A DNA stretch of 40,629 nt from a virus. Each line of letters opens with the position of its first letter. Within the stretch, counting starts at the first letter, position 1. The stretch spans positions 1 through 40,629 of the IMG/VR virus record IMGVR_UViG_3300039008_000041; one strand, given 5' to 3'. Below, one piece after another: positions 3,258 through 40,438 of this stretch. Below the pieces are notes generated by a model that was not told the DNA's origin, made no database searches, and worked only from the letters and a program-made list of their open reading frames with translations. Position numbers and translations under genes: made by a program.

Positions 3258-3279
3258 TTGCATTTTTTTAAATAAAGAC

Positions 3280-3334
3280 TTTACTTTTAATAAATCAGAT
3301 GTTATCTTATTATTAGGTTAACAAATAGAAAGGT
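3280..3334 (+). promoter_or_regulatory. Phage promoter plus conserved leader, copy A
   Basis: -35 TTTACT (3280-3285), 17-nt spacer, -10 TATCTT (3303-3308), 6 nt, then AGGTTAACAAATAGAAAGGT (3315-3334). The ATG is at 3342. Confidence 0.6.
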
Positions 3335-3341
3335 TTATAAA

Positions 3342-4220: not shown

Positions 4221-5093
4221 ATGAATAAAAAAATAAATGTATTAAGCTTATTTGATGGTATTAGCTGTGGTCGCGTGGCTTTAGAGCGCGCAGGGTTTAA
4301 TGTTGGAGTATATTATGCAAGTGAAATTGATAAATATGCAACTCAAGTGTCAGAAAAAAATTACTCTGATATTATTAGAGTGGGCGATGTCACAAAGTGG
4401 AAGGATTGGGATATTAACTGGAAAGAAATTGACTTAGTTATGGCTGGTTCACCTTGTCAAGGGTTTAGCTTTGCAGGTAAACAGCTTGCTTTTAATGATC
4501 CAAGATCTGTATTATTTTTTGAGTTTGTAAACATATTGAACCATATAAAAAAATACAATCCAGATGTTAAATTTTTATTAGAAAATGTTAAAATGAAACA
4601 GCAGTATATGGATGTTATAACAGGACTACTTGAAGAAAATCCACTTCTTATTAATAGCTCTCTAGTATCTGCACAAAATAGACAAAGACTATATTGGGCT
4701 AATTGGGACTTCACAACTCCATCAGATCAGGGAATTCTATTAGAAAGCATATTTGAAGATGATGATTGTGTTATGGATAAATACTACCTAACAAGAAAAA
4801 ATCTACAACATATGCAAAGAAAATTCGGATCAAAGGGGAAAGATATAACAGACTTACTTAAATGCAACACATTAACTGCATCAATGGGTACTGGTGGTGG
4901 AAATCATAGTGACATGGATCTTATCTTAAAAGACTTTTCAGTGAGAAGACTTACACCTTTAGAATGCGAAAGACTTCAAACAATACCAGACAACTATACT
5001 TCTGGAGTGTCAGACACACAAAGATATAAAGCCCTAGGTAATGGCTGGACTGTAGATGTTATTGCTCATATATTTAAAGGATTAAAAAAATAA
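4221..5093 (+). CDS. DNA (cytosine-5)-methyltransferase, orphan
   Basis: Motif I LSLFDGISCG, motif IV GSPCQGFSFAG, motif VI FLLENV, motif VIII SAQNRQR, motif X GNGWTV. No adjacent endonuclease. Confidence 0.85.
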   Translation: MNKKINVLSLFDGISCGRVALERAGFNVGVYYASEIDKYATQVSEKNYSDIIRVGDVTKWKDWDINWKEIDLVMAGSPCQGFSFAGKQLAFNDPRSVLFFEFVNILNHIKKYNPDVKFLLENVKMKQQYMDVITGLLEENPLLINSSLVSAQNRQRLYWANWDFTTPSDQGILLESIFEDDDCVMDKYYLTRKNLQHMQRKFGSKGKDITDLLKCNTLTASMGTGGGNHSDMDLILKDFSVRRLTPLECERLQTIPDNYTSGVSDTQRYKALGNGWTVDVIAHIFKGLKK

Positions 5094-5105
5094 TCTATTT
5101 TTTAC

Positions 5106-5159
5106 TTTACTTTTAATAAATTACTTGTTATAGTATTTATAGGTTAACAATAGAAAGGT
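5106..5159 (+). promoter_or_regulatory. Phage promoter plus conserved leader, copy B
   Basis: -35 TTTACT (5106-5111), 17-nt spacer, -10 TATAGT (5129-5134), 6 nt, then AGGTTAACAATAGAAAGGT (5141-5159). CTTTACTTTTAATAAAT is shared with copy A. Confidence 0.6.
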
Positions 5160-5167
5160 ATAAAAAT

Positions 5168-7656: not shown

Positions 7657-8088
7657 TCACTTAATAAAACGCTTGTCAATAATTTCAAAGTGACCTATAT
7701 CGTCAAAGTCTTGCTCTAATATATCTGTATCCATGTCGAAGTTGCCACCCCATCTACCTTGAACGCCAAGCTCTGCACATACTGATTTAAATAAACCGCC
7801 TAAGTAAATGTAATAATGTGATTCCCATGAAACCTGACCATTGATAAAAACCATTAAATCGCCAGCCTCTGCTGGTGCTATGTTATGCTTTGATAGCTTT
7901 GTTACCCCATCTATTTTACTTCTGCCATTTTTATATAATTCTTTTTGCTCTTCTATTGTTCTCTCTGTGCAAACTATACCGAAGTCTATATCGCTAATTT
8001 CTAACATTCTGTAGAATACAAGCTGAAGTACAGGATTTGCTTTTTTTAATCTCTCAAGGCTTTTTTTTGAAAATTTAAATTTATTCAT
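7657..8088 (-). CDS. Endolysin, peptidase M15 (L-alanyl-D-glutamate / VanY-like), single domain
   Basis: RTIEEQKELYKNGRS...SKHN...AGDL...WGGNFD...DDIGHFE gives the H-D-H metal-site context of the M15 family. No wall-binding domain. Confidence 0.75.
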   Translation of the reverse strand: MNKFKFSKKSLERLKKANPVLQLVFYRMLEISDIDFGIVCTERTIEEQKELYKNGRSKIDGVTKLSKHNIAPAEAGDLMVFINGQVSWESHYYIYLGGLFKSVCAELGVQGRWGGNFDMDTDILEQDFDDIGHFEIIDKRFIK

Positions 8089-23512: not shown

Positions 23513-24085
23513 TTAGTATCTTGATTGACCACGAGCCACTTTGTCAGATAGTGTTTCGTAGCTTGAATTTTCAAGGCTAAACCCTTTGCCGTTAGCAATT
23601 GAGTTTTTCATGCTGTTGAAATAATCTTTTTTCTCTTCGTCTTCCGAGTTCTCCTTTTCGTCTTCCTCTTCGTCCTCAGCATTTTCCTTGTCTTCTTCGT
23701 CTTCGTCTTCCGAGTTCTCTTTGCTCTCTTCTTCCTCGTCTTCAGAATTTTCTTTATCGCCGTCTTCGTATTCGTCGCCTATTTCGTTTTCTTTGTCTTC
23801 CTCTTCTTCTAAGTTCTCTTTTTCGCCCTCATCTTCAGAGTTATCCTTGCACATTGCACTTTCGTATTTCTCTACAAGGTTCTTTACAGACATGCTTTCG
23901 CCTGCAACTTCCACGAAGTCTTCCATGTTTGCTTTTTGGTTTTTCTCTTCCTCTTCTTCCATGGCGTTAGTTACAACTTCAACCATAGACTTCAAAGGTA
24001 CAGTTTTACCGTTAGCAAGTTCTACAACTGTAGTTTCATCAACTACTTTAGTAGGTTCTTTTTTCATATTGAAAAGTTTAAACAT
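23513..24085 (-). CDS. Acidic scaffolding-like protein with low-complexity KENSEDEEE repeats
   Basis: Extreme Glu/Asp content in the middle third. Lies between the DUF2213 and decoration genes. Confidence 0.5.
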   Translation of the reverse strand: MFKLFNMKKEPTKVVDETTVVELANGKTVPLKSMVEVVTNAMEEEEEKNQKANMEDFVEVAGESMSVKNLVEKYESAMCKDNSEDEGEKENLEEEEDKENEIGDEYEDGDKENSEDEEEESKENSEDEDEEDKENAEDEEEDEKENSEDEEKKDYFNSMKNSIANGKGFSLENSSYETLSDKVARGQSRY

Positions 24086-25123: not shown

Positions 25124-26083
25124 TTATTCAATTACAGGTATTGCAACGCATCGGCAGTTAAAATCTTCGCCAGGATGATTCCTGTTGCCGTTATCGTCTG
25201 TTACAGGTGGCTCGTTCCAGCTAAAGATTTGCCCGTTTAAATGAGCATGTCTATCTCTAGTTCTAGAATCTTTTGTTGCAGACCAACGGTATTTAGCAAT
25301 GCCAACTTGCTCGTATCTTTGCTGTTTGTACTTAGATAAAAGCAGGCTAGTTTCTTGCCTAGCTAAAAATTTAGCTTTTTTCTGGGTTGTTTGGTACTGC
25401 TGAGTGATTATACTTTCTAAAGTACTAGCCCTATACCCATTAAAAGTATTATCCCATACTTTTTTACGCATGTCAACAATTTGTTCATCTATGAATGTTC
25501 TAACGTATAAGTCCGTGTTTTCTGTGTAATCTCTTGTTAAATAGCTTATAGCCTCTTTGTTTAAGTCCGGGGCTACTGTAACGCTTTTGATTGTGTCTTG
25601 AAATTCTTTGTCCATAATCTTTACGGCATCGTCGTAAGTTTCTGCTAACTCGGCTTGTAGCTGTGCCTCTTCTATTCTTTGATTAATAACGTCAGCATCT
25701 AGCTTTTCCATGATTTCATCGTGCATCATTTTGAACTGATGCTTTGCGCTTACTATTGAAATTTGTACTTGTGATGGTAAGTTGTTATATAGAATGTACC
25801 AAGCTTTGCGACTTCTGCTGTACTTTGCGCCAGACTCTTTTAACTGCTTGCTGATTTGTGCGTTAAACTTTCCCTCAAATCTATCTTTGATATATTGAAC
25901 TTGTCCTGATTGAATTGCGTTCTCTAAAGCGGTGTATTTTGCGTTCTTTTTAATTCTTCGGTTATACTTTGCCATGATTTCTTCTATTGGTTTAAGCATA
26001 GCTTTTACCATCTCATCGTATAGCTTTTGCTCGATGTTTTTATAGAACTTTTCTTCGTGTCTGATTGGCTTTAGTTGTTTCAT
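25124..26083 (-). CDS. Head morphogenesis protein, SPP1 gp7 / Mu F family
   Basis: The C-terminal WSATKDSRTRDRHAHLNGQIFSW...PGEDFNCRCVAIPV is the family signature. Confidence 0.8.
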   Translation of the reverse strand: MKQLKPIRHEEKFYKNIEQKLYDEMVKAMLKPIEEIMAKYNRRIKKNAKYTALENAIQSGQVQYIKDRFEGKFNAQISKQLKESGAKYSRSRKAWYILYNNLPSQVQISIVSAKHQFKMMHDEIMEKLDADVINQRIEEAQLQAELAETYDDAVKIMDKEFQDTIKSVTVAPDLNKEAISYLTRDYTENTDLYVRTFIDEQIVDMRKKVWDNTFNGYRASTLESIITQQYQTTQKKAKFLARQETSLLLSKYKQQRYEQVGIAKYRWSATKDSRTRDRHAHLNGQIFSWNEPPVTDDNGNRNHPGEDFNCRCVAIPVIE

Positions 26084-26111
26084 GCTGTTTCCTAAATCAT
26101 TATATTCTTTT

Positions 26112-26140
26112 ATGCTATCATAAAAAATAAAACTTTACAA
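26112..26140 (-). promoter_or_regulatory. Candidate promoter for the head-to-lysis operon
   Basis: Minus strand: TTGTAA (26135-26140), 17-nt spacer, TAGCAT (26112-26117). It has the same TTGTAA -35 as the promoter at 35034-35039. Confidence 0.4.
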
Positions 26141-26143
26141 TAG

Positions 26144-26167
26144 AAAAAAGCCCGCTATCTACAGGCT
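26144..26167 (-). terminator. Intrinsic terminator closing the accessory cassette (minus strand)
   Basis: Minus strand: AGCCTG-tagatag-CGGGCT followed by TTTTTT. The G-U pair exists only in the minus-strand RNA. Confidence 0.65.
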
Positions 26168-26299
26168 CTTCGTTATTGTGCTATCTAGGCGCTCCGGTCA
26201 TTTTCAAAAACTCGAAGTGCAACTCCTCACTTAAAAGCAAGACTTCGCGCTGATGATGTTCGACCATGCCATAGTCCACCATTCTATACTATAACGAAG
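26168..26299 (-). ncRNA. GC-enriched structured RNA segment (3' region of the cassette transcript or an independent ncRNA)
   Basis: A 9-bp long-range stem CUUCGUUAU (26291-26299) / AUAACGAAG (26168-26176) encloses about 114 nt. An inner 6-bp stem pairs 26242-26247 with 26213-26218. By hand count 26161-26280 is about 47 percent GC, well above what the flanking sequence looks like by eye (not counted). A terminator follows immediately. Confidence 0.35.
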
Positions 26300-26320
26300 T
26301 TTATTTATTTTCTGTTTCAT
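26231..26320 (-). CDS. 29-aa Trp-rich peptide translationally coupled to the upstream gene (not in the ORF track)
   Basis: ATGA start/stop overlap with the 26317-26511 gene. Translates as MKQKINKLRYSIEWWTMAWSNIISAKSCF. It overlaps the structured segment. Confidence 0.35.
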   Translation of the reverse strand: MKQKINKLRYSIEWWTMAWSNIISAKSCF

Positions 26321-26511
26321 AATAACCTCTGTTTTTTAATCTGTAGTTTAAGCTTATTTTCCATACGTTGTATATCTAATTGCATATCATATAAATCGCC
26401 TAGCGTTATTTCAGCAACTGGGTTTTTTATAATAGACTGCATTAGTTTACGTTTTCGTTGGATTGTATCCCGCAGGTGTATCAACGGGATTAAATCGATT
26501 ATATTAGCCAT
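26317..26511 (-). CDS. Hypothetical helical protein (64 aa)
   Basis: Strong RBS AAGGAG 6 nt upstream. No motif recognised. Confidence 0.6.
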   Translation of the reverse strand: MANIIDLIPLIHLRDTIQRKRKLMQSIIKNPVAEITLGDLYDMQLDIQRMENKLKLQIKKQRLL

Positions 26512-26892
26512 AACTGACTCCTTAAAAGTAATTTGCCAAGGTATTTAGTGGCGACTATTTTTTAGTCATAATAAGTGCTAGTTTTCCCCGCGCAGTAGCA
26601 CTAGCAAACTATCACTGCTTTTCGCTTTCGTGAGTGGGTGGATTTTAAAGAGTTTACTCTCTTGTTTTTTATTTGCCCTTGTCTCTCATATATTCGTTAT
26701 CGTATGTTTCATAAAATAGTTTTTCGTCCTCTCTAAAGTCTATAAATATAAATAGTATTGATATTAAAGCACATACTAGTAATAAAATTTTTTACCTTTA
26801 TATTTTAATTTTATTAATTCTATACAAAAGCTTTTAAACTTTCCATAAATATCTTGTTGAGAAAAAGGGCAATATACTATTTTATCATTGCA
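26512..26892 (-). other. ORF-poor 380-nt intergenic segment with hairpins (long leader or ncRNA)
   Basis: No ORF with a canonical start longer than 8 codons. 7-bp hairpin AGUGCUA / UAGCACU around 26573-26601 and a 5-bp hairpin GACUA-aaaaa-UAGUC around 26551-26565. By hand count 26541-26640 is about 43 percent GC. Confidence 0.4.
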
Positions 26893-27321
26893 TTAATTAA
26901 TAGATCTTTGTAACCCATCAAAATTTAATTCCTCTATTTTTTTATATTGTTCTGCTATTTCTATTAGTCTTTTTATTGTATTAAAATCATTTTCATTATA
27001 GTTTGTATAAATAGTTTGTTTACCATTATTATTACCGTTACTAGATTGAAATAATATAAAGTTTTCCAAATCCCAAAAATCATCTCCGTATTCATTAGGA
27101 TCATCAAAACTAACATGGATAGCAAATCCTCCCTTTAATTCTTCTACTTCCCCTACATAGTAAGGTAAATTTATTTCTTGTATTTTTTGTTTTAACCATT
27201 CTTGTTTTGTTTGTTTAGGTAAGCAGTCATTACAATATAAAACATCATTTACAACCTTAATATTGCTAACTTCTTTACCACATTTAGAACATGGGTTATA
27301 TGTGTGTATTTGTTTAGTCAT
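26893..27321 (-). CDS. Zinc-ribbon protein, unknown function
   Basis: N-terminal CSKCG...CNDC, followed by an acidic/Asn-rich domain. Confidence 0.6.
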   Translation of the reverse strand: MTKQIHTYNPCSKCGKEVSNIKVVNDVLYCNDCLPKQTKQEWLKQKIQEINLPYYVGEVEELKGGFAIHVSFDDPNEYGDDFWDLENFILFQSSNGNNNGKQTIYTNYNENDFNTIKRLIEIAEQYKKIEELNFDGLQRSIN

Positions 27322-27583
27322 CGTCTTGCCCTTTCATTGCTACCAACTCATCAAAAAACTCATAAAACATTTTCCTATAGTTGTCTTGTGTATTATGGTT
27401 ATTGTTACTGTGCATTATTCTTATATCAATATAATCAAGCCATAACTGAATTGATGCGTGATATTCATTTTTTACAGTTAATATTAAAAAACCTTTGTTA
27501 ATATTTGACTGTGGTTTATATCCGTATTTTTTACAATGCGAACGCCACAGCCTCCTTATTCTTTCAGTGTTTTTAACTAGCAT
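27314..27583 (-). CDS. Hypothetical protein, paralogue of the 27573-27860 product
   Basis: Shares the W..HCK.YGY N-terminal block and the FYE...acidic tail with its neighbour. Confidence 0.6.
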   Translation of the reverse strand: MLVKNTERIRRLWRSHCKKYGYKPQSNINKGFLILTVKNEYHASIQLWLDYIDIRIMHSNNNHNTQDNYRKMFYEFFDELVAMKGQDDD

Positions 27584-27860
27584 CGCCTTGCTCTTTCATT
27601 AGTTTTTCGTAGAAGTCTAACACAAGTCTATTAGCTCCATCCTCCCAAGGTGCAATATGTAGAGTAAGAATATCACACGTATTATCTTCTACTAGTATAT
27701 AAGTGTCTGAAATGCACATATGAGTATCTTTAAACTGCAATTTTGTACAATCAGGATTGACTATCGATGCTCCGCAGTAATTAATACAATAGTTATCAAA
27801 ATTATACCCATACTCCTTGCAATGAGCCTCCCAATCTTTTTTGATTTGCTCTATATTCAT
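27573..27860 (-). CDS. Hypothetical Cys-rich protein, paralogue of the 27314-27583 product
   Basis: IEQIKKDWEAHCKEYGYNF aligns with TERIRRLWRSHCKKYGYKP in the neighbour. Confidence 0.6.
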   Translation of the reverse strand: MNIEQIKKDWEAHCKEYGYNFDNYCINYCGASIVNPDCTKLQFKDTHMCISDTYILVEDNTCDILTLHIAPWEDGANRLVLDFYEKLMKEQGDAS

Positions 27861-27872
27861 TATTCTATCTCC

Positions 27873-27998
27873 TTACTTAAAATTATCATTTGAAATTATA
27901 CCAGGGTATGCTCTCTGCTCCCACATCTTCGATAAATACGCTTTTTGCTGGTTAGTAAGCCAGAACTCGCATTGCCATATTAGCCATTGATTAAACAT
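27873..27998 (-). CDS. 41-aa Trp-rich peptide, first ORF of the cassette (not in the ORF track)
   Basis: Translates as MFNQWLIWQCEFWLTNQQKAYLSKMWEQRAYPGIISNDNFK. RBS GAGGAG lies within the conserved leader. Confidence 0.45.
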   Translation of the reverse strand: MFNQWLIWQCEFWLTNQQKAYLSKMWEQRAYPGIISNDNFK

Positions 27999-28010
27999 TT
28001 TTGATTTTCT

Positions 28011-28062
28011 CCTCTATTTGTTAACCTATATATAGTGTAAACCTTTTTTTACTAAAAGTAAA
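28011..28062 (-). promoter_or_regulatory. Phage promoter plus conserved leader, copy C (minus strand)
   Basis: Minus strand: TTTACT (28057-28062), 17-nt spacer, TACACT (28034-28039), 6 nt, then AGGTTAACAAATAGAGG (28011-28027). Confidence 0.6.
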
Positions 28063-28072
28063 GAACTAAATT

Positions 28073-28100
28073 AAAAAAAGAGCAGTTTTTTTACTGCCCT
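28073..28100 (-). terminator. Intrinsic terminator ending the terminase-portal operon (minus strand)
   Basis: Minus strand: AGGGCAGT-aaaaaa-ACTGCTCT followed by TTTTTTT. The single non-Watson-Crick position is G-U only on the minus-strand RNA. Confidence 0.65.
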
Positions 28101-28106
28101 TGTTTA

Positions 28107-28628
28107 TTATCCAAATCTTTTTAATACTTTAATATATATATCTACTAAAAAACCAGTTGCCTCATCTGTAGCTATTCCTAAAAATTCAGCAGGATTGTTT
28201 TTTATGTCTTCCGATCCAATAAATAAACTATTGTATCTTGAAACTATAGAAGTTCCTGCAATAAACCTATTACCACTAGCAAATGGCAGAGTAAATTCAC
28301 TTGGCGAGCCTAACCCAGCCGTAAGTGAAACTGCAAAGCTATCGTTTAAAGTAGTTGTTGTCAATGAGCCGTCTAATCTGATATCTACCATGTCGCCAAC
28401 CGCTAGTGTAGAAAAGTCTAACTGGCTGTTTGTGCTATCCCATAAACCACTAACTCCAAGTGGCAGATACGTTTCTTCTTCTGAACCACCTGCTGTTGTT
28501 AGTGTTAGCTTAGTAGGTACACCTGCTGGCAATGTAATTGGCGTTGTATCTCCGTTTACATAATTACCCCAACCAATGCGACATGCATCAGCTGGTAGTT
28601 CTCCATATCGTCTTAAAATAATTCCCAT
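28107..28628 (-). CDS. Beta-rich protein of unknown function (173 aa)
   Basis: Thr/Ser/Gly-rich with alternating hydrophobic pattern. Last gene before the terminator. Confidence 0.6.
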   Translation of the reverse strand: MGIILRRYGELPADACRIGWGNYVNGDTTPITLPAGVPTKLTLTTAGGSEEETYLPLGVSGLWDSTNSQLDFSTLAVGDMVDIRLDGSLTTTTLNDSFAVSLTAGLGSPSEFTLPFASGNRFIAGTSIVSRYNSLFIGSEDIKNNPAEFLGIATDEATGFLVDIYIKVLKRFG

Positions 28629-28639
28629 AATATTACTCC

Positions 28640-29128
28640 TTATTCATCGTGGGATGATATCAATCCACCTAATAACCTAAACTGGAAATACGCCTGTGAG
28701 CTATCCTTTGGAAATACTATTACCTCAAAAGTGTAAGCCCAGCTGGTTGTTGTGCCTGCATCATAACCAATAGCAATTTTATAAGTATGCATATCATCAA
28801 AGTTATTACTAGTAAAACCAAGGTTAGTGGTGTAACCTGATTCAGCACCAGATGTACGCATACTTCCATTAAGGTGTGTTATATTACCTGAACTTTGTGT
28901 GGTTTCAGTGATATGGTATATCTGTGCTCTAGATGTTGTGCCTACTCCAATCTGGAAGAACTTACCAGAACTTTCAGTATTTCTAGAATATATATCAAAT
29001 CTAACTGTTGTATCGGGTAAATCAAATCTAATATTTTCAACTGGTGTTGTAACATCTTCATCTTCTGTTGCCACGACTACCATTTTAGACCAGTTAGCAT
29101 CGAATGCTGGTTTTGCTGTAAATCCCAT
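28640..29128 (-). CDS. Beta-rich protein of unknown function (162 aa)
   Basis: Thr/Ser/Gly-rich. One-nucleotide TAATG overlap with the upstream gene. Confidence 0.6.
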   Translation of the reverse strand: MGFTAKPAFDANWSKMVVVATEDEDVTTPVENIRFDLPDTTVRFDIYSRNTESSGKFFQIGVGTTSRAQIYHITETTQSSGNITHLNGSMRTSGAESGYTTNLGFTSNNFDDMHTYKIAIGYDAGTTTSWAYTFEVIVFPKDSSQAYFQFRLLGGLISSHDE

Positions 29129-30048
29129 TATACTTTATCTCCTGTACCATTTAATATATTGATATATCTCCATTCACTACCATCGTAGTAGAACTTGAAT
29201 ATATCGCCCTTATTAACTAAGTTGGCGACGCCTTGGCTATTACTATTAAAGTTAATTCTAGCTCTGTTACTAGCACTAAACTGATCATGACTATCATACA
29301 CTGTAAAGCTATCTGTAAAGCCATCTGGAACTGTTAGCAAGATATCTCCCGATGTAGTATCAACCATGTAATCAACACCAACCTTAAGAGTAATGTCTGA
29401 ATTAACCGTCAGTACGCCTTGAATTAAGTCAATATGTGTAGCTGGTAAGTAAATAGCCTTTGTAGTAGGCACATTAGTAGCAGCAGTACCAGCTAATGTA
29501 ATACCTGAAAACTCTACGTACATTGTCATACCTGCATGCAAGGTTAATGCGTTAGGTAGAGGTAATGTAGCAACACCACTAACAATATCTTCACTCTTAA
29601 TATCGTAAGTAGCTACAGATATTTTAGCATTTGTATTATCAGTACCTAAGTAAGCATTTACGTTTAGTTTACCAGTTTCTAATGGTGCCACCTTTATACC
29701 AGTGATAACACTATTTAATGTAGTTGTGTATGTAACTACACCGTTCTCTAGAGGTTCATGTGCTAATGCACCAATTGAAATCTCCTGTTCCCCATCAAGC
29801 ATAAATACATGAGGGTTACCTTTTGTACCTGTACTAGAATCAAATGCATAAGCCATGACTAAAGTTTCAGTACCATCAGGTAAGTTTAAGTCTAAAGTAT
29901 TTACACCATTAGATAAACTCATACCTCCAAGCCATATTGTACTTGGGTCAAAAACAGTTTCTTTAGTTGCTTCTAGCCTATCTGTGTCAGGATTATATTT
30001 TATATATTTATCTAACTGGCTACCACCTTTTTTGTTAATTGTTCCCAT
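29128..30048 (-). CDS. Beta-rich protein of unknown function (306 aa), fibre- or adhesin-like composition
   Basis: No motif recognised. Composition resembles receptor-binding or decoration proteins. Confidence 0.6.
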   Translation of the reverse strand: MGTINKKGGSQLDKYIKYNPDTDRLEATKETVFDPSTIWLGGMSLSNGVNTLDLNLPDGTETLVMAYAFDSSTGTKGNPHVFMLDGEQEISIGALAHEPLENGVVTYTTTLNSVITGIKVAPLETGKLNVNAYLGTDNTNAKISVATYDIKSEDIVSGVATLPLPNALTLHAGMTMYVEFSGITLAGTAATNVPTTKAIYLPATHIDLIQGVLTVNSDITLKVGVDYMVDTTSGDILLTVPDGFTDSFTVYDSHDQFSASNRARINFNSNSQGVANLVNKGDIFKFYYDGSEWRYINILNGTGDKV

Positions 30049-30059
30049 GGTATTACCTC

Positions 30060-30377
30060 CTATGAAATAGAACCAAGGTCTTCAACCTCTATGCCAGATG
30101 TTATAACCTCACTCAATGTAGCCTGGCTTTCTAAAATTACGATGTAGCTCGGTATTCTTTCGAAAGTTCCTCCGTCGATATTAGAATCTCCCTCTAGCAC
30201 TCTTAAATCTGACAAATCTGTAGGCTGAGATAGTCCGTTGTATGAATAAATATCAAACGTCCCAGTTTTCGCTGATATATTTGGTGTTAACTGTTCCGAA
30301 CCAGAAGTTCCTCCTAGCCTTTTAACCTTATAAAGATTGCCTATTGTTATCTGTCTTTTATATGAATCTAAACTCAT
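30060..30377 (-). CDS. Hypothetical protein (105 aa from the preferred start)
   Basis: The start at 30377 (MSLDSYKRQ...) lies 22 nt after the portal stop and has an upstream aaaggg. The track start at 30407 would overlap the portal gene. Confidence 0.55.
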   Translation of the reverse strand: MSLDSYKRQITIGNLYKVKRLGGTSGSEQLTPNISAKTGTFDIYSYNGLSQPTDLSDLRVLEGDSNIDGGTFERIPSYIVILESQATLSEVITSGIEVEDLGSIS

Positions 30378-30399
30378 TTTTTTACCCTTTCGTTTGGGT

Positions 30400-31704
30400 T
30401 TATACATCTACCTTGCATGGCAATAAATCGCCACGGTTTACGTTTTCTTTTGCCTCTTCTGGGCTGATGATACCTAATTCTACTGCCTGTATGATTCTAT
30501 TCATCTGTGCATTTTTGATGTTTTCTTCCTGCTCTGCTGTTAGCACTCTTAGTGATGGGAACATAACCTCTAAATCATCCGGGATAAAACCGAATAGTTT
30601 TTGGCAAACTACTTTTAATGTTTCGCGAACCATGCGTTCTGCTCTTCCTACAACTTCTGACCTTACTTGCATATTGTAATTCTCTATATCGTCTTCGCCT
30701 GCGTTAAAGCCTGATGCTGATAAACCGAATAGCTTTGTCATCGGTCTACGTAGGTCTGCTGATACTCCGATGCGTGATTGACCTAGCATATCGCCTAAAC
30801 CTGTAAAATCTACTTGCTTTTGCTCGTATTCGTCCTCTGTGTCCATAACTAAAGCGTTAAGATGGTTTTTAATCATGTTAGAAAGCTCTACGCGGTTTGT
30901 TAGCTTGTCGCCACTACTCTGACCGTTTGTTTGTGCGTTTTTAAGAAGTCCTAATGCTGTGTTAAAGCCTTTGATTTTATAAATATCAATCTTAGCCTCG
31001 TCAACTAAATCAAAAATAACGTTGTTGTTTTTTAGATACTGATTTACTGAGCGAACTACTCTTTCAAGCTCTGACATTCCCCATCCCCTCATCTCACGTC
31101 TACGCCATGATGGTGCTTTTTTGTTTACGAATTTAATAACACGGCTTTTGTGCAATGGTTGATTGTATAGGATGTATGGAACGTCCGGGGTTGTTAGCTC
31201 CTGCTCTGCTTGGTTAAAGTGGTAGTACTGCATGTTAAGCTCCCATAAATCAGCCGCGTAGAAGTCTAATTGCGTTTTATCGTTAATCTGATTTAAGTTT
31301 AATGGAGTTTTAGGGTTTTGGTTTGTTTGAATAACTAAGCCACCGCCACCGTACAGTCTACCCCAAATGCAGGTCTCTTGTATCTTATCGTTAACTTCTT
31401 CATCTGCCATGTAGTTTTCTAGCATTGTAAGCTGGTCGTCGTCTAGCAGGTCTGTTTTGATTTCGTAACCTTTAGAGAATGCATCAAGCACAGGCTGTTC
31501 GATTAAAGCCTGCACGATTCCGTGTTCTATGTATAACTCTGATAAAAGTTGCCTATTCCAAAATAAAAGCTGATACCTGTTGTTTTTCGTGAATGTACCA
31601 AGCTTGTTAAGCTGTGGAATGTTGCCTATATTAGTCGCAAATGCCTCTAGTGAGTTATCAATAGGAGTTAGCTGCTTGCTGTTACTATTTTCTTTTTTTA
31701 CCAT
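30400..31704 (-). CDS. Portal protein (DUF1073-type)
   Basis: 434 aa, directly downstream of the large terminase. Overall pattern typical of DUF1073 portals. Confidence 0.75.
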   Translation of the reverse strand: MVKKENSNSKQLTPIDNSLEAFATNIGNIPQLNKLGTFTKNNRYQLLFWNRQLLSELYIEHGIVQALIEQPVLDAFSKGYEIKTDLLDDDQLTMLENYMADEEVNDKIQETCIWGRLYGGGGLVIQTNQNPKTPLNLNQINDKTQLDFYAADLWELNMQYYHFNQAEQELTTPDVPYILYNQPLHKSRVIKFVNKKAPSWRRREMRGWGMSELERVVRSVNQYLKNNNVIFDLVDEAKIDIYKIKGFNTALGLLKNAQTNGQSSGDKLTNRVELSNMIKNHLNALVMDTEDEYEQKQVDFTGLGDMLGQSRIGVSADLRRPMTKLFGLSASGFNAGEDDIENYNMQVRSEVVGRAERMVRETLKVVCQKLFGFIPDDLEVMFPSLRVLTAEQEENIKNAQMNRIIQAVELGIISPEEAKENVNRGDLLPCKVDV

Positions 31705-31743: not shown

Positions 31744-33033
31744 TCATAAAACATCCAAAATTGAAAAGTCTTTTTTGATATAATCTTGTAATGCATATCT
31801 TAACGCATCGATGTGGTGGTCGTAACCTGCCTTATCATCAATAACTGGTAGCACTTTCGGGTTGCCGTCTTCGTCTAGTATGTTTTTATCAACCTTATAG
31901 CTGTAATGCTTGAATTCGTTTATAATTCCTTTACATCTCGGGTGGACGTATATCATGTTAAAACCGCGCAAGTATTCGATACCGTCTTTAATTGAGCCGT
32001 CCCACTTCTGACTTCCTATAATGTTAAAGCCTTGACGTGACACGTAACTAATTGTTTCAGGTCTTGCGCAATCTGCTACTATTTCCCACTCTCTCGAGCC
32101 CTCTATGTTATCGAATAGTTCTGGGATTTCTTCAAATTCCACGCCTGTTCCTGCCACTTCTTGGTCGATGTATAAATTATTATCTCGAATAAAGCAACGC
32201 ACCATTGTTGTCGGGTCTTTTGCAAATCCCCAGTCCACACCATAGAATAGTCTACTTTGGTATACATCGTTAAGATCTGGAGTTTCGAAATCCAGCTCTT
32301 CCCAACATCCGTGGAATATAACTTTTTGGTTCATTCCTGTTGCTATACCTAGATATTGGTTATTGTATAACTCTGGCTTGTTTTTTTTAGCCTCTTCTGC
32401 TTTCATTAAAAAACTCTCCCCCAGCCAGTCTTTTGGAACTGTTAGGTATGTGGAGTGGTGTGTATATCTGTAGTGCGGGTCTTCTTCCACTTCTTCGTTT
32501 ACCCATGCTGTAGATTCCTTTGGCGGGTTGTAACTCATGAAAGTAACAAATGGCTCGTTTGTACCACGCTCTAGTGATTGTTGAACTGACATGATTTCTG
32601 CGATGCCGTTAAACTCTGTTATTTCTTCGAACCAAATATATTTAGGATAGCCTACTACGAACTTCATACCTTTTACTTTTTCCGGGTCATCTAGTCCTCT
32701 GAATTTAATTTCTTGCCCTGTTGGTAAGTATGTTATTTTCATTGGGCTTACGCTAATCTTGAAATATCTGCCCCAGCCTAGCTCATTAATAGCCCATTGC
32801 ATTTGGTTATAAACTGTATCACGCAAGTTCTTTTCTGCTTTTCTTAGAATAACCGCGTTTGCTTTTGGGTCGTTTACTATTCCTAGTATTATCTCTAAAC
32901 TAATAAATGATGATTTTGTTGAACCCCTGCCTCCGCTTAGCCAATACTCAGCATAGCCATTATTCTTTAATAGCTTGTGTGCCTCGTGAAAGTGTGGCGC
33001 TATTTTTCTAGTTAGTTTAATTCTGTTACTCAT
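31744..33033 (-). CDS. Terminase large subunit (PBSX/Terminase_3-like)
   Basis: Walker A WLSGGRGSTKSS, Walker B-like IWFEE, and a C-terminal nuclease region with DHHIDALRYAL. Confidence 0.85.
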   Translation of the reverse strand: MSNRIKLTRKIAPHFHEAHKLLKNNGYAEYWLSGGRGSTKSSFISLEIILGIVNDPKANAVILRKAEKNLRDTVYNQMQWAINELGWGRYFKISVSPMKITYLPTGQEIKFRGLDDPEKVKGMKFVVGYPKYIWFEEITEFNGIAEIMSVQQSLERGTNEPFVTFMSYNPPKESTAWVNEEVEEDPHYRYTHHSTYLTVPKDWLGESFLMKAEEAKKNKPELYNNQYLGIATGMNQKVIFHGCWEELDFETPDLNDVYQSRLFYGVDWGFAKDPTTMVRCFIRDNNLYIDQEVAGTGVEFEEIPELFDNIEGSREWEIVADCARPETISYVSRQGFNIIGSQKWDGSIKDGIEYLRGFNMIYVHPRCKGIINEFKHYSYKVDKNILDEDGNPKVLPVIDDKAGYDHHIDALRYALQDYIKKDFSILDVL

Positions 33034-33735: not shown

Positions 33736-34974
33736 CTACACCTCCGCTAATACTTCATCTCTGATTTCGTTCCATTGGTAGGTTTTACCGTCACGGATTA
33801 ATTGGATGTCGTATTTATCTAAGTTGTTATATCTTTTTACGATTACATCTACGTACTTCTCGTCCAGCTCCATTATAAAACTTGTTTTATTAGCCTGTAT
33901 AGCTCCAAGTAATGTAAACCCAGATCTACCGAATAAATCCAATACTGTATTGCTATCTGAGTGATTACTTAATGCTCTAGTTGCTAATTCAAAAGGCTTT
34001 TGTGTTGGGTGCTGATAATTACTGTCTTTTTTAACATTCCACAAGTCTGATTCATTTTTAATATTATCATCTATCTTTGCATTATATAGACAAAATTCAT
34101 GTTGATGTCTGTATCCATTACCCATTCCAAATACATTTTTAGCCCAAACAATACAACCTTTAAATTCTAGTAAGTTTTGCAATAATCCATAAAAAGACCA
34201 ATTACACCATATATAATAATGCTTTGGATTTATATATTTAACAACATCTATTACTTTAGAAATAAATTCTTTAAATTCATCATTGCTTAAATCATCATTT
34301 TTAATAATATCGTGTTTTCCGCTACGACCATTAAAAGAAACATTATAAGGTGGGTCAGTATTTATAATATCAATTTTATTCCCATTTAAAAGTTTATTAA
34401 CATCTTCTTTACTAGTACTATCGCCACACATTAAACGATGCTTTCCTAGTACCCAAACATCCCCTCTTTTAGAAAAAGGTTCTTGGTCTTCGTCTGCCTC
34501 TGGAACTTCACCTTCTTCTATTTCCTTTTCTAACTCAATTTTCAAGTCGCCAAGCTCTATATCGTCAAATCCTAACAAATCAATATCGAATGATAAATCG
34601 CCCAGGTGCTGAATTTCTACTGCTAGCATTTCTTCGTCCCATCCGGCGTTAAGTGCTAGCTTGTTATCTGCGATTACGTATGCTTTTTTTTGCGCGTCTG
34701 ATAGCCCCTCTATCTTAATGAATGGCACTGTGTTAATACCCATTGCTTTTAAAGCCATAACACGACCGTGTCCGGCGATGATAATGTCGCACTCATCGGT
34801 TAGAACTGGGTTAGTAAATCCCCATTCTTTTATTGAACTGATAATTTGTTGAACCTGTTTGTCGCTGTGTGTTCTTGAATTGTTTACGTATGGTACTAGA
34901 GTTTCCACTTCCATTATGTGGTCTTGCCCGAATCTTTGCACCATTTGTTGTTTAATTTGGTCTATTGTTAACAT
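33736..34974 (-). CDS. ParB-like nuclease domain fused to an N6-adenine/N4-cytosine DNA methyltransferase
   Basis: N-terminal ParB-N-like region (NSRTHSDKQVQQIISSIKEWGFTNPVL...GHGR), then IINTDPPYN (motif IV) and DLFGRSGFT (motif I). Confidence 0.8.
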   Translation of the reverse strand: MLTIDQIKQQMVQRFGQDHIMEVETLVPYVNNSRTHSDKQVQQIISSIKEWGFTNPVLTDECDIIIAGHGRVMALKAMGINTVPFIKIEGLSDAQKKAYVIADNKLALNAGWDEEMLAVEIQHLGDLSFDIDLLGFDDIELGDLKIELEKEIEEGEVPEADEDQEPFSKRGDVWVLGKHRLMCGDSTSKEDVNKLLNGNKIDIINTDPPYNVSFNGRSGKHDIIKNDDLSNDEFKEFISKVIDVVKYINPKHYYIWCNWSFYGLLQNLLEFKGCIVWAKNVFGMGNGYRHQHEFCLYNAKIDDNIKNESDLWNVKKDSNYQHPTQKPFELATRALSNHSDSNTVLDLFGRSGFTLLGAIQANKTSFIMELDEKYVDVIVKRYNNLDKYDIQLIRDGKTYQWNEIRDEVLAEV

Positions 34975-37305: not shown

Positions 37306-37324
37306 AGTTTTACCTTTCTTTTAT

Positions 37325-37368
37325 GTTAACCTTTCTTTTATTGTACTACTATTTTTTATAAAAGTAAA
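37325..37368 (-). promoter_or_regulatory. Phage promoter plus conserved leader, copy D (minus strand)
   Basis: Minus strand: TTTACT (37363-37368), 17-nt spacer, TACAAT (37340-37345), 7 nt, then AGGTTAAC (37325-37332). Confidence 0.55.
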
Positions 37369-37385
37369 GTATTTTTATAAAAAAG

Positions 37386-39732: not shown

Positions 39733-40374
39733 ATGTTAGATAAAAAAATCGTTTTTAACGGAATAGAAATGCTTTGTATTAATTTCAGCATAGATAAGAC
39801 CAAGAAGGAGATAAAAACGTTTTGTCGTTCTATTTATCCTATTCTGGAGAGTGAAAGCGTAACCAATGAAGAGTTCGGGAATGCTATTGTTGCTTTTATG
39901 AAGAAAACAAAGGGTTCTAATTTCAATAAAATACCAAGCGTAGGGGATTTCTTAGCAATAATTGGCAAAGCACCTAAAGACCCGGAGCAATTGGCTCAGG
40001 AACAGGCGATGCTTGTTTGGGAGGGTGGCTATACTTATGCTGATAAAGTTATTTTCGATAATCCAACAACTAATTACATTATTGAGCATTCTTTTGGTGG
40101 TCTGTCTAATTTCCGTTGGAAGTACCTTAATTCTCAAAATGAAAATATAATCGGCGACAACTGGGGAAGAAAAGAGTTTGTTTCGGCTTGGGTTACTGCT
40201 TACAAGGTTGGTAAAGAGAAAAAAAGCCCTTTGTGTAGTGATGCTAGCAGAATTGACAGCAAAATAAAAGTTATTGGCAATCCTGAAAAGGTTGTTTTAA
40301 TGCTGGAGAATAAGCCTGAAAATAATAAAACAAATGAATCAGTTAAACTTTTAAGTGAAAAAATGAAAATATAA
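39733..40374 (+). CDS. Hypothetical protein (replication-module neighbour)
   Basis: 213-aa ORF with RBS aaggag. No motif recognised. Confidence 0.6.
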   Translation: MLDKKIVFNGIEMLCINFSIDKTKKEIKTFCRSIYPILESESVTNEEFGNAIVAFMKKTKGSNFNKIPSVGDFLAIIGKAPKDPEQLAQEQAMLVWEGGYTYADKVIFDNPTTNYIIEHSFGGLSNFRWKYLNSQNENIIGDNWGRKEFVSAWVTAYKVGKEKKSPLCSDASRIDSKIKVIGNPEKVVLMLENKPENNKTNESVKLLSEKMKI

Positions 40375-40375
40375 C

Positions 40376-40431
40376 TTGACTTTAGGTAAAGCATGAATTA
40401 AGCTAATATATAGGTTAACAAATAGAAAGGT
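40376..40431 (+). promoter_or_regulatory. Phage promoter plus conserved leader, copy F
   Basis: TTGACT (40376-40381), 17-nt spacer, TAAGCT (40399-40404), 7 nt, then AGGTTAACAAATAGAAAGGT (40412-40431). The ATG is at 40439. Confidence 0.6.
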
Positions 40432-40438
40432 AAATAAA

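Follow-up and report, generated by a model that had tools for sequence, protein, structure and literature searches.

Several described kinds of phage accessory gene resemble the locus analysed here, a 2-kb cassette of small genes at positions 26084-28105 (minus strand) of the IMG/VR virus record IMGVR_UViG_3300039008_000041, whose full stretch of 40,629 nucleotides (nt) is called the window below. Morons, reportedly described in lambdoid phages by Juhala et al. in 2000 and Hendrix et al. in 2000 (summarised in PMC2839356 and PMC4378225), are in their classical form usually single genes, carried by temperate phages and expressed from the prophage. In the PeSL+ORFan cassettes of the T4-type phages RB49 and phi1, repeated PeSL (promoter-early stem-loop) elements precede and flank database orphans; each element joins a stem-loop terminator to a sigma-70-like early promoter with a Shine-Dalgarno sequence. 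These cassettes are mobile between genomic contexts, and it has been proposed that their stem-loops prevent early ORFan expression from reaching late virion genes (Arbiol et al. 2010, PMC2839356). The internal protein (IP) loci of T-even phages hold hypervariable small genes with conserved N-termini, flanked by early promoters and stem-loops, whose products counter host restriction (PMC2839356). Further parallels are the anti-CRISPR (acr) operons, here called acr-aca, of the Pseudomonas Mu-like phages JBD30 and D3112 (RGP G, PMC4378225; Aca1, PMC8633003).

The window represents a small myovirus of about 40 kb, and every gene of the cassette region lies on the minus strand. We regard the cassette as probably an autonomously transcribed unit of the moron or PeSL+ORFan type, that is, an early-region module moved to an insertion hotspot between the genes for the portal protein and the Mu-F head-morphogenesis protein. 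The elements of the locus, in the direction of transcription and with lengths in amino acids (aa) for open reading frames (ORFs), are as follows.

31744-33033, minus strand: TerL, large terminase (Terminase_3), from gene order
30400-31704, minus strand: portal protein (Phage_portal_3), from gene order
28107-30407, minus strand: late ORFs of 115, 306, 162 and 173 aa (phrog_22216, phrog_2725, phrog_8270), the proximal half of the insertion between portal and Mu-F
26084-28105, minus strand: the cassette, forming the distal 2 kb of the gap
28071-28101, minus strand: predicted terminator T1, a hairpin AAGGGCAG-loop-CTGCTCTT with a T-run, directly after the stop codon of the 173-aa ORF
27999-28062, minus strand: early-type sigma-70 promoter with conserved leader, from an alignment of five copies
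27873-27998, minus strand: 41-aa ORF with 4 Trp, the first cistron behind the conserved leader
27573-27860, minus strand: 95-aa protein (p95), acidic, isoelectric point (pI) 4.5, with relatives in lineages L094 and L099-L101
27314-27583, minus strand: 89-aa protein (p89), a diverged p95 paralogue whose ORF overlaps that of p95 by 11 nt
26893-27321, minus strand: 142-aa acidic mosaic protein (p142), pI 4.8, with partial relatives in L010, L094 and L101
26669-26893, minus strand: pseudogene of a single-pass membrane protein of about 75 aa, from a reading of three frames and codon scores
26512-26668, minus strand: true intergenic spacer with a patch of about 100 nt at GC 0.44, no significant structure and no recognisable promoter
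26317-26511, minus strand: 64-aa basic ORF (p64), pI 10, Shine-Dalgarno AAGGAG, codon score 0.05, best frame
26231-26320, minus strand: 29-aa ORF with 3 Trp, joined to the 64-aa ORF by an ATGA overlap, coding status uncertain
26141-26171, minus strand: predicted terminator T2 at the cassette end, an 11-pair hairpin with a T-run, from hairpin scans and folding
26112-26140, minus strand: candidate late-type restart promoter for Mu-F and the head genes, TTGTAA-17-TAGCAT with TG upstream of the -10
25124-26083, minus strand: Mu-F/SPP1-gp7 head-morphogenesis protein, from gene order

The ORFs at 28107-30407 are a separate module and lie outside the cassette. Beyond Mu-F the gene order continues with a DUF2213 protein, an acidic protein, a cement protein and the major capsid protein.

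The cassette sits in an insertion. The distance from portal to Mu-F is 4320 nt in the window, and we compared it with 80 metagenomic loci fetched with a Mu-F profile, in which portal and Mu-F could both be located in 59 independent loci. The distance was below 700 nt in 47 of these 59 loci, between 0.9 and 1.5 kb in six, and between 3.6 and 5.5 kb in the remaining six. In the three closest Mu-F relatives (L095, L097 and L098; 41-43% identity in a search of 5.8 billion proteins) the two genes overlap, and in Bdellovibrio phage phi1422 the portal gene, a 110-aa gene and Mu-F are contiguous. Because of this distribution and the overlap in the closest relatives, we take the junction to be ancestrally tight and yet a recurrent hotspot for insertion. 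A preliminary description of the stretch had stated that the two genes are normally adjacent and 4.3 kb apart here, and the survey bears it out. As to whether the cassette varies among related phages, its genes were found in none of the other portal/Mu-F loci surveyed, L095, L097 and L098 included; the cassette is specific to the present lineage and absent from every related locus examined. No convincing flanking direct repeats or target duplications were seen at the cassette.

At its 5′ end the cassette carries a promoter that belongs to a family repeated in the window. The promoter has a -35 TTTACT (28062-28057), a 17-nt spacer and a -10 TACACT (28039-28034); behind TACACT come the leader TAGGTTAACAAATAGAGGAG and then an ATG at 27998, with GGTTAAC at 28026-28020 and the Shine-Dalgarno sequence GAGGAG ahead of the ATG. 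Five matches to the motif ACTTT-N24-30-AGGTTAACA are present in the window, where chance would give 0.01, and the whole promoter-plus-leader element is about 60 nt long. The sister copies are given below.

3279-3341, plus strand: drives a 121-aa ORF through the C5-methylase operon; an upstream hairpin folds at -7.9 kcal/mol
5105-5167, plus strand: drives a 62-aa ORF, the Sak single-strand annealing protein and an exonuclease
37306-37369, minus strand: drives a 57-aa ORF and SSB
40375-40438, plus strand: -35 TTGACT, downstream of the 213-aa gene at 39733-40374

All four sister copies head early-region operons, three of which contain SSB, Sak/exonuclease or the C5 methylase, and none of the five copies in the window stands ahead of structural genes. 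The early timing assigned to the promoter is a prediction from the genes that the motif precedes. The hairpin upstream of the element differs from copy to copy: that of the cassette is strong (-11.6 kcal/mol), those at 3279 (-7.9) and 5105 (-3.2) are moderate and weak respectively, and the copies at 40375 and 37369 have none. All five copies share a 6-bp palindrome, GTTAAC, at about +1 to +10 within the invariant AGGTTAACA (GGTTAAC at 3316, 5142, 28026, 37331 and 40413). Rather than being a mere part of the leader, GTTAAC could be an operator for a phage regulator, for instance the HTH_3 protein encoded at 756-1157.

The cassette is bounded on both sides by hairpins of terminator type. The T1 hairpin (28101-28078) has 9 pairs, 4 of them GC, and folds at -11.6 kcal/mol (z -4.0; none of 200 shuffles folded as well); T1 is predicted to end the incoming packaging/portal transcription unit. 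The T2 hairpin (26171-26145) has 11 pairs and folds at -13.8 kcal/mol (z -2.7). Our hairpin scans covered nearly the whole window, of which the late region makes up about 27 kb; among the minus-strand hairpins reported for 7.4-35 kb, T1, T2 and the hairpin at 7293-7252, which closes the late operon, are the top three by paired bases. Behind T2 lies the candidate restart promoter, which has only 8 of 12 consensus matches and falls under the threshold of the promoter scan; the same layout of terminator, T-run and promoter (TTGTAA-17-TATAAT) is found at the head of the late operon (35039-35011). At the level of sequence prediction, these elements agree with the picture drawn earlier of a self-contained, insulated accessory unit amid the late morphogenesis genes: a terminator for the incoming operon and one of the cassette's own, both hairpin-plus-T-run motifs; an early-type promoter with a conserved leader; and a fresh promoter for the head genes, weak as its match to the consensus is. 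Within the cassette, 26 nt after the pseudogene (26664-26689) are 77% like 28085-28110, the stop of the 173-aa ORF and the 5′ half of T1, and a weak hairpin (AAGAGAG-TAAA-CTCTTT) follows this stretch; here there may be the relic of a further terminator, from a time when the cassette consisted of two sub-cassettes.

Relatives of the cassette genes were found only in non-structural regions of three other uncultured phage lineages, L094, L101 and L010. On the 1.2-kb contig L094, two such genes, one p95-like and one resembling the C-terminal part of p142 (p142C), stand downstream of a homologue of the window gene 39733-40374, and the promoter ahead of them belongs to the family of the window's element. 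The GC content is 0.26-0.32 in L101 and its relatives (IMG/VR; a 41-kb contig), where p95-like, p142C-like and second p95-like genes, two zinc-ribbon genes and a membrane-protein gene share one rightward operon, with an ERF/HNH region on one side and the small terminase subunit on the other. In L010, a 108-aa gene with a p142-like zinc-ribbon N-terminus follows YopX in a replication-type region. The p95 and p142C families thus occur together in both L094 and L101. Base composition sets the cassette apart as well: its GC is 0.306, and 2-kb windows go no lower than 0.311 in the late region (mean 0.370) and 0.313 in the early region (mean 0.329). In L010 (2602-3322) the ribbon gene stands directly behind YopX, and in the window YopX (1162-1560) is followed by an unrelated 68-aa ORF, a comparison that illustrates module exchange downstream of YopX.

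The genes of the p95 and p142C families share an unusual pattern of conservation. Their first 55 nt or so and last 21-47 nt are 83-100% identical between lineages, and their cores are saturated with change. For the p95 family the conserved ends lie at 27804-27875 and 27572-27618 in the window, at 705-763 and 930-953 in L094, and at 8001-8054 and 8246-8292 in L101; the central 190 nt or so are saturated across these three unrelated phage genomes. Read from the alignments, the pattern suggests recombination linkers at the gene ends or a cassette-like exchange of cores.

The preliminary description had listed only small products of no recognisable function, among them two tandem paralogues and a zinc-ribbon protein, and this part holds: ORFs of 41, 95, 89, 142, 64 and 29 aa are present, and none of the six products received a Pfam, PHROG, NCBIfam, PADLOC or PDB assignment. 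Codon statistics give coding support to the 95-, 89- and 142-aa ORFs, weak support to those of 41 and 64 aa, and none to the 29-aa ORF or to a 33-aa rival. The N-termini of p95 and p89 are identical at 10 of 18 residues (E 2e-7) and a C-terminal motif is also common to both; because an 82-aa relative serves as a bridge that aligns with both along the whole length, we take them to be diverged paralogues. The AlphaFold model of p95 (pLDDT 76, pTM 0.72) has an alpha-beta4-alpha arrangement of a helix, four strands and a helix, in which the terminal helices are conserved and the sheet is variable. No significant fold neighbour was found for p95; PDB gave nothing better than E 0.39 (TM at most 0.41), and BFVD nothing better than E 0.019, to an uncharacterised protein. 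Homologues of the p95 family were found neither in cultured phages nor, as prophage copies, among 185,579 species genomes, and no paralogue of any cassette gene was found elsewhere in the window.

p142 is a mosaic. Residues 1-36 form a zinc ribbon of the CxxC-15-CxxC type, and the first 107 nt of its gene, which encode this ribbon, are 92% identical to the start of the 108-aa gene in L010; residues 38-142 have their relatives in L094 and L101, in ribbon-less proteins of 79 and 76 aa. Apart from these partial relatives p142 is an orphan in an exhaustive HMMER search of 1.84 billion cluster representatives, and p142 and p95 each have a single partial relative among the 5.8 billion proteins. Its structure model (pLDDT 53) is too poor to be usable. 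Matches of p142 to LmuB (PADLOC, 15 bits) and to DUF4428 (E 0.24) were set aside as noise.

The remaining ORFs are less secure. The 41-aa ORF, for which no homologue was found, has a weakly positive codon score of 0.09, the best of its three frames. For the 64-aa ORF no relatives were found, and IMG/VR scans for p64 and for the p142 C-domain gave none; a match of p64 to Crov588 (E 2.4e-6) proved to be an artefact, the sum of 12 sub-threshold matches of at most 5.4 bits each to a protein reported to have 25 leucine-rich repeats (PMC9525666). The proposed coupling of the 64-aa and 29-aa ORFs stands as far as their ATGA overlap goes. The 29-aa ORF itself has no coding signal and is overlapped by the rival 33-aa ORF (26181-26282, a JGI call), with codon scores of -0.09 and -0.06 for the two.

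One earlier claim had to be given up, that of about 0.5 kb of ORF-poor, GC-enriched, structured sequence. The stretch (26512-26892) measures 381 nt at a GC of 0.29 against 0.353 for the window, with only some 100 nt (26540-26640) reaching 0.44, and about 225 nt of it are a pseudogene. It showed no significant folding (z-scores of -0.6 to -1.7 against shuffled controls), no Rfam match at gathering thresholds (only noise at E above 1) and no tRNA or tmRNA, and we reject a structured RNA in the gap. The pseudogene's ancestral start, a TAATG that overlaps the p142 stop, no longer shares a frame with the peptide (M)NDKIVYCPF...KYKGKK; further on, a -1 frameshift at GGT AAA AAA T (an A6 run near 26790) joins this peptide to ILLLVCALISILFIFIDF...DKGK. 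The gene thus carries two frameshifts, at about 26892 and about 26790, and codon scores in its two frames are coding-like (0.14 and 0.34). In the transmembrane part, 29 nt are 96.6% identical to a gene for a 53-aa membrane protein at the corresponding place in L101, and the sequence of the region is identical in three independent assemblies.

Put together, the cassette may work as follows. Host sigma-70 RNA polymerase would start at the element common to the SSB, Sak and methylase operons; the module, although inside the structural genes, has kept, or acquired, the phage's own early promoter. The 41-, 95-, 89- and 142-aa products, and probably those of 64 and 29 aa, would then be made early, along with the DNA-metabolism genes. 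T2 would keep early transcription out of the head genes, T1 would keep late packaging/portal transcription out of the cassette, and the late-type promoter after T2 would restart transcription of Mu-F and the head genes. The products are small and predicted to be cytoplasmic; two are acidic, and their cores diverge fast between conserved ends. They would most likely bind host or competitor proteins. One member of the module, the small membrane protein, has already decayed to a pseudogene. An anti-defence or host-takeover role is plausible, given small acidic proteins behind an early-type promoter. Going further, it is a doubtful suggestion that p95/p89 and p142C, found jointly in at least three unrelated uncultured lineages, are a new polymorphic pair of early-expressed inhibitor proteins. 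On such a reading, and just as speculatively, the terminal helices would be a fixed scaffold that doubles as recombination linkers and the beta-sheet a fast-exchanged specificity surface; the targets, a guess of the same order, would be variable factors of host defence or of competitor phages.

Other explanations make different use of the same features. That the cassette is an anti-defence island, as the preliminary description proposed, is possible, although we would not put it first; one or more small acidic proteins would inhibit host immunity (restriction, CRISPR, CBASS), and in position and regulation the cassette would resemble the acr loci embedded among the head genes of Pseudomonas Mu-like phages. 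Its early-type promoter, small acidic products, low GC and lineage-specific presence fit, an arms race might produce families such as p95 and p142C, conserved at the ends and hypervariable in the core, and the low-GC accessory regions of Mu-like phages, with ORFs of 34-100 codons, do hold anti-CRISPR genes (PMC4378225). All of these features suit any early accessory gene equally, however. Pfam, PHROG, PDB sequence and fold searches gave no similarity to a known Acr or anti-defence protein, the only PADLOC match is the noise-level one to LmuB, the cassette has no Aca-like helix-turn-helix (HTH) gene, and the promoter is of the phage's generic early type rather than a dedicated, autoregulated one. 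The same low GC, the lowest in the genome, could instead mark a neutral, eroding remnant of illegitimate or homologous recombination with no current function. This we think unlikely. The two-frameshift pseudogene, the 29-aa ORF without coding signal and the near-orphan status of the products in libraries of 5.8 billion and 1.84 billion proteins point that way, but four intact ORFs retain Shine-Dalgarno sequences and positive codon scores, with junctions that overlap or are coupled, the predicted promoter, both terminators and the restart promoter are intact, and p95 and p142C have been kept together in at least two other phage lineages.

Position and architecture can also be read in terms of the virion or of the prophage. 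The cassette lies between the portal and Mu-F/scaffold genes, the N-terminal 18-20 residues of p95 and p89 are conserved and the remainder is variable, and the T4 IP loci are likewise hypervariable and flanked by early promoter and stem-loop elements (PMC2839356), which could make the products virion-associated, internal or ejected proteins with N-termini that act as capsid-targeting signals. We consider this very unlikely: the homologues in L094, L101 and L010 are far from head genes, a cleaved targeting peptide would leave the conservation of the C-termini unaccounted for, the promoter belongs with the DNA-metabolism genes, and the terminators separate the cassette from late transcription. 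Least likely of all is a lysogenic-conversion moron, expressed from the prophage for the benefit of the host. The promoter/terminator architecture is that of a classical moron and the HTH_3 protein at 756-1157 is of CI/Cro type, yet no integrase-sized ORF with a recombinase domain is present among the window ORFs examined, the search of the 185,579 species genomes gave no prophage copy of the p95 family, and the promoter is common to replication/recombination operons, which a prophage must silence.

Several observations weigh against our preferred reading of the cassette as an autonomously transcribed early module moved to the hotspot. The repeated promoter motif stands at its 5′ end only, which leaves motif-to-motif recombination a putative route of insertion. 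The phage has no close relative, its best Mu-F match among the 5.8 billion proteins being 43% identical, and all other copies of the cassette that we found belong to an identical genome. The genes behind the copy at 40375 run off the end of the window; the label "early" derives solely from the genes behind the motif, because the candidate promoter of the late operon is also sigma-70-like. Known anti-defence, defence and regulatory families gave no match to any of the products, and the p95 fold searches returned no significant match. Finally, the pseudogene and the two doubtful mini-ORFs indicate partial decay, and the cassette may be under weak selection.

A megablast search of 50,697 phage records gave no close relative of the phage. 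The nearest named relative is phi1422, with a portal 41% identical, which belongs to the phiPLPE-like "dwarf myovirus" group (PMC3391216); a comparison of TerL relatives was uninformative as to the host. Inserts between portal and Mu-F were seen at L029, L030, L038, L062/L063 and L071. Judged from a reading of the sequences, the large inserts at other loci encode fibre-like, LamG-like, SGNH-hydrolase-like or pectate-lyase-like proteins, often fused to, or behind, a domain of about 100 aa resembling the window's 115-aa protein. This domain may be a capsid or neck anchor for head fibres, and the proximal 2.3 kb of the gap, with the ORFs of 115, 306, 162 and 173 aa, belongs to this class of fibre- or decoration-like inserts. 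The 173-aa protein (28107-28628) falls in phrog_2725, whose name, "acetyl-CoA acetyltransferase", is dubious. It shares 70% identity with a counterpart in Vibrio phage 1.009.O and 60% with one in Shewanella phage SFCi1, and homologues also occur in Flavobacterium phages, at differing genome positions. In 1.009.O the homologous gene is likewise followed by a terminator and a promoter; because of this and of its varied positions, the 173-aa gene resembles a horizontally mobile late gene. Further along the late block, a 190-aa protein at 23513-24085, between the DUF2213 and cement proteins, consists of extremely acidic Glu/Asp/Asn/Lys repeats (…ENSEDEEE…) and is presumably a scaffold or spacer. 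The window also encodes two methyltransferases that likely serve anti-restriction self-methylation: a fusion of a ParB N-terminal domain with an N6_N4 DNA methyltransferase (33736-34974), with which the late operon begins, and, in an early operon, a C5 cytosine methylase (4221-5093).

Set beside the described systems, the cassette shares with morons the position of extra genes between two genes that are adjacent in relatives (here in a 4320-nt gap), a predicted promoter (28062-27999) and terminator (T2) of its own, and a differing base composition (GC 0.306 against a late-region mean of 0.370 and minimum of 0.311). Classical morons are transcribed independently of the surrounding late operon, as the cassette is predicted to be. 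It differs from them in comprising six ORFs and a pseudogene, in using the phage's own early promoter family, and in the lack of a visible integrase; no lysogeny genes were recognised. With the PeSL+ORFan cassettes it has in common genes that are database orphans and a location at a family-wide hotspot. Its promoter and leader are repeated five times in the window, but a convincing upstream hairpin is found at only two or three of the five copies. At the 3′ end of the cassette, where a second motif copy would complete a flanking pair of recombination sites, there are T2 and a TTGTAA-type promoter instead; there is no sign of mini-circles or of motif-to-motif recombination, the phage is a 40-kb small myovirus and not T4-type, and the motif sequence is unrelated. 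With so few convincing hairpins and a motif at one end only, assignment of the cassette to the PeSL class is tentative at most.

Like the acr-aca operons, the cassette is a small cluster of low-GC ORFs with its own strong promoter within the morphogenesis block, variable between relatives, and its expression would be early, as that of acr-aca operons is at the onset of infection. The differences are that no Acr homologue was found in it, that none of the six products is an Aca HTH regulator (Pfam, E up to 1; NCBIfam), and that no inverted-repeat operator is apparent beyond the 6-bp GTTAAC palindrome common to all the early promoters. A parallel with ZF40 was considered and rejected, since this related phage keeps acrIF8-aca2 elsewhere and has portal and Mu-F adjacent, with no accessory cassette between. 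From the IP loci, whose products are packaged via a cleaved capsid-targeting sequence, the cassette is distinguished by its non-structural homologues and by the conservation of both termini.

The architecture is therefore one already known, that of the moron or the PeSL cassette, and the locus reveals no new kind of system. What is novel is its orphan proteins, two gene families with conserved ends and hypervariable cores, and both families are reasonable candidates for anti-defence screening. The survey also shows the portal/Mu-F junction to be a family-wide hotspot in phi1422/phiPLPE-like small myoviruses. In the order terminator, early promoter, ORFans, terminator, restart promoter, the cassette offers a clean natural example of how a small myovirus of virulent type would place early accessory genes in a late block without disturbing morphogenesis, by a design that morons and PeSL cassettes have made familiar.

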